DNA of 64,000 nt from Alphaproteobacteria bacterium (GTDB lineage: Bacteria > Pseudomonadota > Alphaproteobacteria > CAAHEQ01 > UBA3637): contig JAZKXR010000007.1 of the NCBI GenBank assembly GCA_045611705.1, forward strand, positions 117,262 to 181,261, in the 5' to 3' direction. This document shows, piece by piece, positions 18,330 to 23,244 of this stretch. Position numbers and translations under genes: made by a program. Numbering within the stretch: the stretch's first letter is position 1; each line of letters starts with the position of its first letter. A model generated the notes under the pieces. It was not told where the DNA came from. It made no database searches and was given only the letters and a program-made list of their open reading frames with translations.

Positions 18330-18950
18330 ATGATTGGAAAATTGACAGGTATAGTGGATTCTGTTTATGACGGATATTTGATTTTAGATGTGGCAGGGGT
18401 TGGTTATCGTGTTTTTTGTTCAGGTAAGACACTGGCAAAAATGCCTGCGACAGGTGGTACGGCTGGTTTGTTGATTGAAACTCAGGTGCGTGAAGACCAT
18501 ATCCATCTGATGGGATTTTCGGATGCAACGGAAAAACAGGCCTATACTTTATTGAGTACTGTCCAAGGGGTTGGCAGTAAGGTAGCACTGGCAATTTTAT
18601 CAGCTCTTTCGCCAAATGAAATTCAAATGGCGGTCATGACGGGGGATGGTAAGGCTTTTACCCGTGCCAGTGGCGTGGGGCCAAAATTGGGGAGTCGTAT
18701 CGTCAGCGAGTTAAAAGGTAAAATGGGTGCGCTGGGTTCAAATGAAACGATGATTGTATCTTCGGCTTCTGGGGCGACGCTTCAACATAATTCGTTCATG
18801 GATGATGCGATATCGGCTTTATCCAATTTGGGCTATGCCAGAATTGAAGCAGGTATGGTGGTTGCCAATGTATTGCGTCAAAATCCGGATGCGAATACCT
18901 CAGAATTGATTCGTTTATCTTTAAAGGAAATAGGAAAGGGGAGTCTATGA
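18330..18950 (+). CDS. ruvA: Holliday junction helicase subunit RuvA. The ORF-track 5' extension is removed
   Basis: MIGKLTGIVD start with an AAGGAGA ribosome-binding site and a RuvA domain order. Confidence 0.9.
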   Translation: MIGKLTGIVDSVYDGYLILDVAGVGYRVFCSGKTLAKMPATGGTAGLLIETQVREDHIHLMGFSDATEKQAYTLLSTVQGVGSKVALAILSALSPNEIQMAVMTGDGKAFTRASGVGPKLGSRIVSELKGKMGALGSNETMIVSSASGATLQHNSFMDDAISALSNLGYARIEAGMVVANVLRQNPDANTSELIRLSLKEIGKGSL

Positions 18951-19522
18951 AAAAGATAATTTTAATGGTTTTGTGTTTGTTGTGTTCTGTTTCGTCTTTT
19001 GCACGTGTTGTTGTGTTGGATGAGAAAAATTCCAAGAAAAATGAACTTTATGTTGATGAACACGGACTCTATCGTTATAAAAGGGGCGAAGATATTTATA
19101 AGTGGGAATGTATGGATATTTACCAAAAAGAGGCCAAAAAGAAGTGTATGGAGGCACGCAAATTAGCTTTGGATGAGTTGCGTTCAAAGGCTGAAAATCA
19201 ACAAGATGATACTCTTTTTACTGGAAAAATTCAAATTCGTCCACGCAAGGGGGAGGATACCTATTATTATGTGGAAGATGGCGTTAGAGAAAAAGAAATA
19301 AATGTTTTACGCAAGCAGTATTATTTTGAAAAAAATACCGCAGGTAAATATGTTTTATTTGATTTAACGACAGAAGAACCCTATACAGGGGATATGACAT
19401 TGGGGTCTGTGGTTGGACTTTCACCGATTGTAGGTCATGAATCACGGTTTTTGATTACTCAAAAATACGCCAATGGTTTACCCGATGGTAATCCGATTGC
19501 CCAATCTTTAAGTGAATTGTAA
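18947..19522 (+). CDS. Secreted or lipoprotein-like hypothetical protein inserted between ruvA and ruvB
   Basis: 191 aa with signal peptide MKKIILMVLCLLCSVSSFA. Its ATGA start overlaps the ruvA stop. Confidence 0.6.
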   Translation: MKKIILMVLCLLCSVSSFARVVVLDEKNSKKNELYVDEHGLYRYKRGEDIYKWECMDIYQKEAKKKCMEARKLALDELRSKAENQQDDTLFTGKIQIRPRKGEDTYYYVEDGVREKEINVLRKQYYFEKNTAGKYVLFDLTTEEPYTGDMTLGSVVGLSPIVGHESRFLITQKYANGLPDGNPIAQSLSEL

Positions 19523-19531
19523 GGAAGAAAA

Positions 19532-20575
19532 ATGGTAGAAAACAGAATTATTGCACCACAAAAACAACAGGGGGATGAGGAAGTTTTTAAAAGTATGCGC
19601 CCACAAAGTTTGGATGACTTTGTCGGACAAAAACAACTTTGTCAAAATTTGCGTGTTTTTGTAAATGCGGCCAGGGATAGAAAAGAGGCCATGGACCACG
19701 TTTTGTTGTTTGGTCCGCCGGGGTTGGGTAAAACGACATTGGCACAAATTGTGGCCAAAGAATTGGGGGTGAATTTCAGACCCACTTCAGGTCCTATGAT
19801 TTCAAAATCGGGTGATTTGGCCGCCATTTTGACCAATTTGGAGCCAAGGGATGTTTTGTTTATTGATGAAATTCATCGTTTGAATCCTGCGGTTGAAGAA
19901 GTGCTTTATTCGGCTATGGAAGATTTTCAGTTGGATATCGTTATTGGGGAAGGGCCGGCGGCTCGTTCGGTTCGGATTGATTTGCCTCCGTTTACCTTAA
20001 TCGGTGCGACAACGCGTTCAGGATTGTTATCAACGCCGCTTCGTGACAGATTTGGTATTCCGATGCATTTAAATTTTTATGATACGGATGATTTGGAAAA
20101 AATTGTTCAACGCAATGCCCGTTTGTTGAATTTGGATATAACCCAGGAAGGCGCCCATGAGATTGCCAAGCGTTCACGTGGAACACCTCGTATTACGGGC
20201 AGATTATTGCGTCGGGTACGTGATTTTGCCGGTAAAAAGACCGTAGATGCTTCTTTGGCGGATTTGGCTTTAAATCGTTTAGAGGTGGATAAGTCCGGTT
20301 TGGATTCTATGGATAGACGCTATTTATGCTGTATTGCCGAAAAATATGCCGGCGGTCCCGTTGGGGCGGATACTTTATCGGCCGCTTTATCGGAAGAGAG
20401 GGATACTTTGGAAGAAGTGATTGAACCTTATTTAATGCAGTTGGGCTTGGTAATGCGTACCCCCCGTGGGCGTGTTTTATCACCCGCCGGTTATAAACAC
20501 CTGGGATTGAAAACACCATTAAATATGATACAACCTGATTTATTGGATGATATGGATAAAATTTTAAAGGATTAA
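19532..20575 (+). CDS. ruvB: Holliday junction helicase subunit RuvB
   Basis: 347 aa with Walker [10 protein letters not shown] and the DEIHRL motif. Confidence 0.95.
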
Positions 20576-21583: not shown

Positions 21584-21987
21584 TACATGAATATACTTTC
21601 AGAATTTATTATAAAGATACGGATGCCAGTGGGATTGCCTATCATGCCAATTATTTGGCCTATGCCGAACGTGCGCGTACGGAAATGTTTAACGAAGTCG
21701 GTTTGTTGATGCCGGATTTGTTGGCCCGTGGGGATTCGTTTGTGGTAAATCATGCCGAAATTGATTATAAAAGACCAGCTCCATTGAATTCTTTGGTCAC
21801 AATTAAAAGCCAAATTTTACAAATTAAAGCGGCCAGTTGTACTTTGGAACAAAAATTTTATATTGAAGATCAGCTGATTTGTCGGATTTTGATTGAAGCC
21901 GTTTCTGTTGATACCCATACTTTACGCCCCAAACGGATTGCCTCTGATATTCGCTCTTTATATGAAAAGTATTTAAAACAGGAATAA
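21580..21987 (+). CDS. ybgC: Tol-Pal-associated acyl-CoA thioesterase YbgC (4HBT fold)
   Basis: 135 aa with YYKDTDASGIAYHANYL. Its ATGA start overlaps the kinase-like gene, and it lies upstream of tolQRA. Confidence 0.85.
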   Translation: MIHEYTFRIYYKDTDASGIAYHANYLAYAERARTEMFNEVGLLMPDLLARGDSFVVNHAEIDYKRPAPLNSLVTIKSQILQIKAASCTLEQKFYIEDQLICRILIEAVSVDTHTLRPKRIASDIRSLYEKYLKQE

Positions 21988-21990
21988 AAA

Positions 21991-23244
21991 ATGGTGAATA
22001 TAAAACTCAGAAGTTATGCTAATGGTAAGGAGGCTTTATTTGAAACGCCAGGGAAATTAGATATTCCTGAGTTTGAGAAAATGGGAAAAAAAGACACTGA
22101 AAATTGGAGTCGAACGCCAACGGTTAATTTATCGTCATGGAAAGTTTCGCATGATTTATCAAATTATGATATGCAGGATATAGATTTTGATACACTGACA
22201 CAATTTTCGGATGAAAAGTTTTGCCCGAACGGATGGGGCAAAAAAGACGAGATTTTAGAAATCGGAAAAGATCCGGGGCTTGGTATACGTTGTTTACATG
22301 AAAAAGGGATTGATGGGGCTGGTATGTCAATGGCGATTATTGATCAAGCCCTTTCGGATCATTTAGAATATCATGATAACTTAGTTCATTATGAAGAAAT
22401 TGGCTTTGAAAAAGCCCCCGAACGTGGTCAGATGCATGCTTCAGCGGTATCCAGCATTGCTGTTGGAAAAAATTGTGGTGTCGCACCAAAGGCAAAATTA
22501 TATTATTTTGCCACAAATACACGAAAAACCAAGGATGGGAAAGAAGTCAGAACAGCAGATTACAGGGTTCGGGCATTAGAGCGCATTTTAAAAATCAATG
22601 AAACTTTATCCGATAAAGAAAAAATACAAGTCGTTTCTGTTTCTGCAGGATGGATGGGGCAAGAAAATACGGAAAAATCAGAAGAATGGCGAAAAGTTTT
22701 GCAAAAGGCTAAAGAGGCTGGCCTGTTTGTTTTGACTACTGCTTCCAGAAAAGAATATGAATATGGATTAGGATTTTTAGGAATGGGCAAAAAAGTAAAC
22801 AGTGATCCAAATGATATTAATTCTTACTCCGAATGCCCATATAATTTGCCTGAATCTTTTATTTCGCAAAAAAATATATTTGTTCCAATGGATCATAGAA
22901 CAACAGCTTCACCAACAGGGAATAATGATTATTTTCATCTTTCAGATGGAGGTTTTAGTTGGGCAACGCCATGGTTGGCAGCTAATTTTCTCTTGGCTCG
23001 ACAGGTAAATCCAAAAATAACACCAGAGCATTTTTGGGATGTTGCTTTAAAGACGGGGGTATTTAGTGAAAAGGTACAAGGGACAGTTATTCAGCCATTA
23101 AAACTGATTGATACATTGCAAAAGGAAAGAGTTTGTTATAGTATGAAAAGTATAATGATTCAAGGGCAACAAAGGGCAAATGAAAAAGAAGAGAAACAAA
23201 AAAATATTTTAAAATTAACGAAAGGAAAGCAAAATGCAAAATGA
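21991..23244 (+). CDS. Subtilisin-like (S8) serine peptidase with no signal peptide
   Basis: 417 aa with a D-motif AIIDQA, an H region QMHASAVSSIAVG and an S-motif SDGGFSWATPWLAANFLLA (compare GTSMAAPHVAG). No hydrophobic N-terminus. Confidence 0.6.
   Translation: MVNIKLRSYANGKEALFETPGKLDIPEFEKMGKKDTENWSRTPTVNLSSWKVSHDLSNYDMQDIDFDTLTQFSDEKFCPNGWGKKDEILEIGKDPGLGIRCLHEKGIDGAGMSMAIIDQALSDHLEYHDNLVHYEEIGFEKAPERGQMHASAVSSIAVGKNCGVAPKAKLYYFATNTRKTKDGKEVRTADYRVRALERILKINETLSDKEKIQVVSVSAGWMGQENTEKSEEWRKVLQKAKEAGLFVLTTASRKEYEYGLGFLGMGKKVNSDPNDINSYSECPYNLPESFISQKNIFVPMDHRTTASPTGNNDYFHLSDGGFSWATPWLAANFLLARQVNPKITPEHFWDVALKTGVFSEKVQGTVIQPLKLIDTLQKERVCYSMKSIMIQGQQRANEKEEKQKNILKLTKGKQNAK

Follow-up and report, generated by a model that had tools for sequence, protein, structure and literature searches.

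The window analysed here is a 64,000-nucleotide stretch of contig JAZKXR010000007.1 (positions 117,262–181,261, forward strand) from an Alphaproteobacteria bacterium, and it contains a ruvA-ruvB-ybgC-tolQRA operon, three junctions of which are occupied by additional genes. An open reading frame (ORF) for a predicted exported protein, ORF191, is found between ruvA and ruvB (slot 1), a kinase-like gene between ruvB and ybgC (slot 2), and a gene for an S8 subtilase (S8) between ybgC and tolQ (slot 3). It is likely that these three inserts are accessory passengers, probably co-transcribed with the operon, and independent of each other as well as of Ruv and Tol.

According to the interpretation favoured here, three inter-cistronic junctions of this operon carry promoter-less accessory genes in one low-GC clade of uncultured gut and rumen bacteria. 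Each cargo gene starts at the former start codon of the core gene downstream, uses the old ribosome-binding site of that gene, and then reads through a second copy of the initiation region, which provides a new Shine–Dalgarno sequence (SD) and keeps the stop/start overlap. With the initiation region repeated behind the cargo, translation of ybgC and tolQ thus stays coupled. Cargo is lost by clean deletion, and related lineages appear to swap it by homologous recombination within the conserved genes on either side.

Distribution of the inserts among related loci

Nine genes of the + strand (18330–25249) are tightly packed in the order ruvA-ORF191-ruvB-kinase-ybgC-S8-tolQ-tolR-tolA-like. All three inserts were found inside the operon where the initial annotation had placed them, that is, at 18947–19522 (ORF191), 20579–21583 (kinase-like gene, 334 amino acids (aa)) and 21991–23244 (S8, 417 aa), each on the + strand. 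Spacing between consecutive genes is −4 nt at ruvA/ORF191 (ATGA), +9 nt at ORF191/ruvB, +3 nt at ruvB/kinase, −4 nt at kinase/ybgC (ATGA), +3 nt at ybgC/S8, −11 nt at S8/tolQ, −4 nt at tolQ/tolR and +1 nt at tolR/tolA. The gaps of 0–4 nt or ATGA overlaps that had been claimed for the inserts are present at most junctions, with the exception of ORF191/ruvB and S8/tolQ.

For comparison, 18 syntenic loci from related uncultured gut and rumen Alphaproteobacteria were used, nearly all of which are metagenome contigs or metagenome-assembled genomes from gut and rumen samples, labelled "Alphaproteobacteria bacterium". The presence or absence of each insert was scored by tblastn of the window proteins against all of the fetched loci, in combination with gene calls. 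An exact record search with the window proteins that were looked up, S8 included, returned none on record. The flanks of the relatives are collinear with the window: MoxR-DUF58 genes, BacA, SspB and DnaB lie on one side, and the other side carries the hybrid histidine kinase, a GlgA-like glycosyltransferase and a TolC-like outer-membrane protein of the OEP family.

All three slots are filled in the window (ORF191, kinase and S8), as well as in locus L001, the RuvB of which is 92% identical to that of the window. Loci L004 and L017 (UBA3768; RuvB 93.6%) have ORF191 and the kinase with slot 3 empty, and slots 2 and 3 are in the same state in L021 (94.6% nucleotide identity; RuvB 98.5%, partial), in which the ORF191 slot lies outside the short contig. 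The reverse state, i.e., ORF191 and S8 with slot 2 empty, was found in L014 (RuvB 99.1%) and in L015, L007 and L008 (RuvB 96.5%), and both slots are empty behind an ORF191 in L010, L018 and L020 (RuvB 86–87%). Loci L013 and L019 (RuvB ~87.5%) have ORF191, an empty slot 2, and a 103-aa membrane ORF together with S8 in slot 3. In L027 and L028 (RuvB 92.7%), ORF191 is present and slots 2 and 3 are both occupied by S8 paralogues, which in L027 are located at 2438–3727 (ruvB|ybgC) and 4133–5386 (ybgC|tolQ), and are 46% and 54% identical to the window S8, respectively. Finally, L012, a more distant relative (RuvB 89.6%), contains in slot 1 an 88-aa ORF (2826–3092), which is Cys-rich, has an N-terminal membrane segment and is unrelated to ORF191; its kinase gene (4124–5103) is broken into two parts of 263 and 52 aa that do not share a frame, so that it is either a pseudogene or the product of an assembly error, and its slot 3 is empty.

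The kinase and S8 therefore vary independently, with all four presence/absence combinations seen, even between genomes that are ~94% identical. ORF191 is nearly fixed, being present in all but one (L012) of the related lineages examined. An operon free of the insert was thus found among the relatives for the kinase and S8, and for ORF191 in L012 alone, where the slot is filled otherwise. That ruvB, ybgC and tolQ are contiguous in the sister lineages L010, L018 and L020 agrees with the lineage-specific nature ascribed to the inserts. It had also been proposed that the inserts are established members of the operon and not recent arrivals. The inserts are indeed old, as orthologues with about 40–50% identity occupy the same slots (S8, 50% in L013; kinase, 49% in L012; ORF191, 38–46% in L010, L018 and L020), but their membership is not stable: the kinase is gone from L014, L015 and L007 (RuvB 96–99%), and S8 is gone from L021.

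Junction structure, transcription and exchange

In the loci with an empty slot 2 (L010, L018, L020 and L013), ruvB and ybgC are separated by a shared spacer of ~42 nt (..CTTTAAT..ATTGAAAAGGAAA..ATG), and the same spacer precedes the cargo ATG in L001 and L004, which carry the kinase, and in L027, which carries the S8 paralogue. At the opposite end of the insert, the last codons of the kinase gene (..KKGKTK-stop, AAAAAAGGAAAAACAAAATGA) give ybgC a new SD and an ATGA overlap. Based on blastn breakpoints against L014 and L015, the segment of the window that is missing from L014, L015 and L007 extends from 20561 to 21562 (+). The ruvB–ybgC spacer of L014 and L015 consists solely of the last 12 nt of the kinase gene (AGGAAAAACAAA), and the ancestral ~42-nt spacer is gone; the empty slot 2 of these loci is therefore a deletion scar. 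In the window lineage, most of the slot 2 spacer has been deleted, and the end of ruvB is now found 3 nt from the kinase ATG. RuvB has five extra C-terminal residues here (..DKILKD; 20561–20575), as its frame runs into the spacer remnant, and this deletion accounts for a length of 347 aa as compared with 342 aa in relatives.

In the lineages that lack S8, the ybgC product is 140–142 aa in length and ends with ..EKYLKE(T)KGEENAK-stop, and the gene and the tolQ ATG share an 11-nt overlap. Where S8 is present, its ATG is found after ..EKYLK and an SD, at the position of the tolQ ATG, and the product of ybgC is shortened to 135–140 aa. The S8 gene itself ends with ..KGKQNAK-stop at the TGA (inside ATGCAAAATGA) that terminates ybgC in S8-less genomes. 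The segment that is missing from L021 and L022 was delimited by blastn breakpoints to 21989–23193 (+) of the window. Since L021 retains both a short ybgC (135 aa) and 23 nt from the 3' end of S8, its loss of S8 was secondary. Taken together, the deletion scars show that the window, L014, L015 and L021 descend from an ancestor with both cargo genes, and that the differences among these genomes result from recent clean deletions (~1.0 kb and ~1.2 kb) that left the operon intact. The breakpoints showed no insertion sequence (IS) elements, integrases, attC/attI sites or repeats. Both cargo enzymes have disordered, Lys-rich tails, and their last codons (KKGKTK and KGKQNAK, each before the stop) are the SD and spacer of the next gene in translated form; in S8, the tail is basic and is derived from the operon junction. 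Every junction state keeps the downstream genes translationally coupled.

Inside the operon, a consensus scan found 12 promoter-like sites as compared with 22 ± 6 in shuffled controls, and none at the junctions. The number of terminator-like sites (8, as compared with 5.9 ± 2.8 in controls) was not in excess, and none of them is located at a junction either. Thus, the inserts were found to be devoid of detectable terminators and, as previously suggested, of promoters of their own. The sole non-coding sequence conserved in 12/12 aligned relatives is a promoter-like block at 18265–18309 (+; AATCAATCTTTTTTGTTTGCATTTTTATTCTTTTTTGTGTAGGAT; ..TTTGCATTTTTATTCTTTTTTGTGTAGGAT) in the divergent dnaB/ruvA intergenic region, upstream of ruvA. 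This block was not called by the sigma-70 consensus scan, as its match is too weak, but it is probably the native promoter of the operon. Given the spacing of the genes, the most economical reading would be that the cargo is co-transcribed from this promoter. A possible SOS control of the operon was also considered, as a perfect GAAC-N7-GAAC sequence (alphaproteobacterial LexA-type box) is found at 18311–18325, overlapping the ruvA SD. The box was rejected as a chance match: two such sequences are present in the window with 1.6 expected by chance, and it is not conserved in L001, L004, L010, L013, L018 and L020.

In deep comparisons (window versus L001 or L004), the ratio of nonsynonymous to synonymous divergence (dN/dS) was 0.14–0.22 for ORF191, 0.21–0.27 for the kinase and 0.15 for S8, and 0.03–0.13 for the core genes. 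The cargo evolves faster than the core, but is clearly constrained by purifying selection. Together with the intact orthologues in relatives, this selection indicates that the cargo ORFs are real genes and not chance reading frames. The GC content at third codon positions is 0.23–0.30 in the cargo, 0.34–0.42 in most of the core genes, and 0.26 in tolA.

A different picture was obtained for S8 over short distances. Between the window and L014, the synonymous divergence (dS) of S8 is 0.008, as compared with 0.21–0.41 in the neighbouring genes, and between the window and L007 it is 0.119, as compared with 0.38–0.64. The mismatch profile of the window and L014 revealed a near-identical tract (21907–23400, +; ~0.7% mismatches) within flanks of ~6–12% mismatches, which reaches ~80 nt into ybgC and ~170 nt into tolQ. 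The tract bears the signature of recent homologous recombination, in which the core genes would have served as arms. Lower S8 divergence recurs against an independent haplotype assembled from several samples (L007, L008 and L015). No introgression is claimed for the kinase, the dS of which against L021 (0.14) is only slightly under that of its flanks (0.22–0.31).

Properties of the inserted proteins and their neighbours

The kinase-like protein matches Pfam APH (PF01636) over residues 35–258 (E-value, 1.7e-12; 48 bits; cut-off, 23.2), and S8 matches Peptidase_S8 (PF00082; E-value, 3e-7; 30.5 bits; cut-off, 21.8); hence, both of the enzyme identities assigned initially hold above the cut-offs of these models. 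The kinase contains a VLK54IP motif, a catalytic loop Y-R-D200-Y-R-P-S-N205, and an IID219FD motif. An alignment of 12 homologues demonstrated that the Lys of VLKIP, the (F/Y)RDYRxxN loop and IDF(D/G) are conserved, with D200, N205 and D219 nearly invariant. The AlphaFold2 model (predicted local distance difference test score, 80.6; predicted template modelling (TM) score, 0.80) has a disordered C-terminal tail. Foldseek searches with this model gave APH(2'')-IVa, -Ib, -IIa and -Ia as the best hits (E-value, 2e-12), closely followed by YihE, with TM values of 0.50–0.63 and 15–20% identity, and APH(2'')-Ia was also the best match in a profile search of the PDB (E-value, 3.5e-5). The NCBIfam models for APH(2'') (NF033692, NF000498 and NF041446) returned 17.5–20.6 bits, with cut-offs of 475–625. 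The subfamily comprises 11 proteins by a word-seeded search. Judging from the profiles and the predicted fold, the protein appears to be an APH/protein-kinase-like O-phosphotransferase outside the resistance families. It would act in the cytoplasm, most likely on a small-molecule substrate of the APH(2'') type, with a protein substrate of the YihE type being possible.

The catalytic triad of S8, consisting of D118 (AIIDQ), H149 (MHAS) and S323 (GFSWATP), aligns with D32, H64 and S221 of Savinase. Among 39 homologues, H149 and S323 are invariant, and D118 is found in at least 90%. Against the PDB, the family profile best matches Tk-SP (3afg; E-value, 3e-11) and an intracellular serine protease (7xr8; E-value, 3e-10), and 2x8j is matched at an E-value of 2e-4; the similarity to these solved structures is confined to the profile level. 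Residues 1–100 (21991–22300), which precede the catalytic Asp, are conserved family-wide, with (I/L)P at about residue 26 and the motif D-x-R-S..DLS..FD..T-W-P, and may form a pro-region or an inhibitory extension comparable to the LIPY segment of intracellular subtilisins. The window S8 has no hydrophobic N-terminal segment and its ORF is not extendable upstream, which bears out the earlier statement that the protein lacks a signal peptide. The family is large (718 matches, including Clostridium, Fusibacter and Anaerolineales), and most of its members have a signal or lipoprotein signal, unlike the operon-embedded subgroup, which is confined to the clade. In a crude neighbour-joining tree, a signal-less clade contains the slot 3 S8 genes, and a second one includes P0019, the slot 2 paralogue, together with P0080, which stands alone; clades with a signal are set apart from both. 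Elsewhere, homologues of S8 are stand-alone genes in unrelated contexts, with no kinase as a neighbour. Based on these features, S8 is predicted to be active as a serine endopeptidase and, like the intracellular subtilisins (ISPs), to function within the cell. Small hydrophobic membrane ORFs adjoin S8 homologues upstream in L013 (6165–6476, 103 aa) and L023 (7798–8004, 68 aa); they show no similarity to each other or to the window, where S8 lacks such a neighbour, and could be protease partners or a coincidence.

ORF191 starts with a typical signal peptide (MKKIIL...SFA|R), in agreement with the secreted nature initially attributed to it, and is therefore probably a periplasmic or secreted protein. 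It has two invariant cysteines (C55 and C67), and the C-terminal half of its predicted structure is confidently modelled as beta-rich. No family, fold relative or homologue was found outside the clade, and a search among 1.84 billion representatives gave 12 matches.

The core genes were identified with Pfam and NCBIfam equivalog models. All of them are on the + strand: ruvA (18330–18950; TIGR00084; E-value, 1.9e-52; aligned from residue 1; 205–206 aa in relatives), ruvB (19532–20575; NF000868; E-value, 3e-152), ybgC (21580–21987; TIGR02799; E-value, 1.8e-34; 135 aa, without the ancestral C-terminal KGEENAK), tolQ (23234–23929; TIGR02796; E-value, 7.6e-73; 11-nt overlap of its start with the S8 stop), and tolR (23926–24351; TIGR02801; E-value, 2e-34). 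The last gene of the operon (24353–25249) was assigned as tolA-like, its match to TIGR02794 (E-value, 2e-4) being under the cut-off, and it encodes a Lys/Pro-rich linker and has a conserved position in relatives. It is followed by a convergent gene for a hybrid histidine kinase/response regulator (25246–27381, − strand). In the clade, tolB and pal are not located downstream of tolA, but L012 keeps tolB directly after tolA; a tblastn search with the TolB of L012 found no tolB in the 64-kb window. The only Rfam matches of the window at gathering score are two tRNA genes, at 35935–36016 (+) and 60893–60980 (−).

Alternative explanations and comparison with known systems

Several observations weigh against the inserts being independent, co-transcribed passengers that are exchanged by recombination. 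The case for co-transcription consists of gene spacing and the absence of detectable signals, and a chimeric assembly of strains that co-occur in metagenomes could imitate the recombination tract. In S8, the oxyanion-hole Asn of subtilisin (N155; AAGN) aligns with a non-conserved Ser/Leu in the Tk-SP profile alignment, and loss of the signal peptide in a mostly secreted family is no proof of cytoplasmic action. Moreover, in 5/5 independent contexts examined, members of the kinase subfamily lie between ruvB and ybgC and nowhere else, and one lineage placed a second S8 in the same operon, so the location may have functional value. The latter two findings also speak for the view that the inserts add functions to the envelope machinery, in which case ORF191 would be a periplasmic Tol partner, the kinase and/or S8 would act on YbgC, Tol components or envelope precursors by modifying or processing them, and the position in the operon would be a sign of shared function. 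Such a role would be consistent with the persistence of the cargo in the same operon across deep divergence, with the absence of tolB after tolA and from the window, which makes an unusual Tol system conceivable, and with the precedent of yihE, an APH-fold kinase gene that is co-transcribed with the envelope gene dsbA (PMC9663540). However, the kinase and S8 were each cleanly lost in close relatives in which the core is intact and under strong constraint (dN/dS 0.01–0.08), slot 2 can hold a protease in place of the kinase, relatives of S8 stand alone elsewhere, and operon orphans such as flhE and btuE come with an explicit warning that they need not share the function of their operon (PMC1480536). 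Searches for Tol/Pal homology (YbgC, TolQ, TolR, TolA, TolB, Pal and CpoB) gave no family match for ORF191, the kinase or S8, and we found no evidence that the inserts are components of Tol or Ruv. As both enzymes were lost cleanly with the core genes visibly unchanged, the envelope link appears to be the weaker reading, and is considered unlikely.

A related view, with a small chance of being correct, is that the junctions are integrase-free cassette acceptors by virtue of the stereotyped initiation regions of these AT-rich genomes (A-rich spacer, AAAGGA-type SD and ATG). Recombination between initiation regions would then drop promoter-less ORFs onto core start codons and duplicate the region behind them, and later events would be precise excision or a swap of cargo, e.g., in slot 2, where either the kinase or an S8 paralogue is found. 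If true, it would represent a general and undescribed route by which genes enter and leave operons with translational coupling unbroken. It is quite unlikely that the kinase is a phosphotransferase for resistance to aminoglycosides or other antibiotics that spreads in gut bacteria under a housekeeping promoter. All of the best structural and profile matches are to APH(2''), and the gene, an accessory one, varies in its presence from one gut strain to another; nevertheless, the scores against curated APH(2'') models are far under the cut-offs, identity is 15–20% at a TM of ~0.55, the protein kinase YihE matches about equally well, and there are no plasmid relatives. The YRDYRPSN loop also looks closer to the HRDxKxxN loop of protein kinases, a further point against this assignment. 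A captured two-gene system of kinase and S8, i.e., one for defence, of a toxin/antitoxin-like type or for peptide maturation, is very improbable. Enzymes of these types do occur in some defence systems and in systems for ribosomally synthesized and post-translationally modified peptides, and PADLOC gave weak matches to PD-T4-6 (E-value, 2.5e-4; 30 residues) and "subtilase" (E-value, 7e-4), but these cover the generic catalytic loop only, none is significant, ORF191 has no match, and the neighbours are housekeeping genes; a defence system was rejected. The implied pairing of kinase and protease fared no better: ybgC lies between the two, their distribution is independent even in near relatives, slot 2 of L027 and L028 holds an S8, and S8 homologues elsewhere have no kinase beside them. 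A mobile origin was not indicated either, as tblastn searches of plasmids with the kinase and S8, and of phages with S8, gave no match. Hardly tenable is the explanation that the ORFs arose as artefacts of the annotation or represent pseudogenes in decay, with reading frames that happen to be open still. The split kinase of L012 and the dispensability of both enzymes in relatives would fit it; against it stand the full length of the window copies, the retained catalytic residues, and purifying selection across lineages. Independent accessory passengers thus remain the likely explanation.

One essential-type operon is seen here with empty, kinase-filled and protease-filled junctions, and so it offers a clean natural series for the entry and exit of operon genes. 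For annotation, caution is needed, since a position in the ruv/tol operon would be an unreliable guide to the function of ORF191, the kinase or the protease. In addition, three uncharacterised protein groups under selection are flagged. One is an exported orphan, another is a narrow subfamily of kinases, and the third consists of those members of a large, mostly secreted S8 family that lack a signal.

The kinase shares its bilobal fold with APH(2'') and YihE (SrkA, RdoA), as well as the conserved Lys, the DxxxxN loop and the Asp that binds metal, but it differs in its low identity to them (15–20%) and in scoring far under the cut-offs of the curated families. S8 shares with the ISPs and Tk-SP the Asp/His/Ser order (profile E-values, 3e-10 to 3e-11), and with the ISPs the lack of a signal peptide. 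In contrast to both, it is part of a large family of its own; its ~100 N-terminal residues are conserved, its tail is basic and junction-derived, and no Asn aligns with that of the oxyanion hole. A genomic association of Ruv, YbgC and Tol has been reported from STRING (PMC3403352). In comparison with the proteobacterial ruvABC and ybgC-tolQRA-tolB-pal neighbourhood, the core order ruvA-ruvB-ybgC-tolQ-tolR-tolA is the same as in the sister lineages, and the operon differs in that tolB and pal do not follow tolA and in its three extra genes. As in integrons, promoter-less cargo would be expressed from a resident promoter, with variable cargo at a fixed position; unlike in integrons, neither an integrase nor attC, attI or repeats were seen, and exchange apparently proceeds via homologous recombination in the flanking core genes.

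The initial annotation had regarded a kinase and a subtilase in such an operon as an arrangement not described before. This is true for the present combination of genes, but not for the process behind it, nor is a kinase gene in an envelope operon without precedent, as in yihE-dsbA (PMC9663540). That native operons take up orphan or foreign genes, which are then expressed from the native promoter, was described by Price, Arkin & Alm 2006 (PMC1480536), as was the occasional non-homologous replacement of genes within operons (PMC1480536), and the mechanism of insertion was called unclear by these authors (PMC1480536). Like their orphans, the genes found here are lineage-restricted, under purifying selection and co-directional with the operon, apparently depend on the native promoter, and need not match the operon in function. 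In contrast to the insertions of that study, three junctions of one operon are occupied, one junction holds alternative cargo depending on the lineage, the junctions are resolved to the nucleotide, and the sequences still display deletion scars as well as a recombination tract. Thus, the locus adds a new and well-resolved case to a process already known, the insertion of genes into operons.

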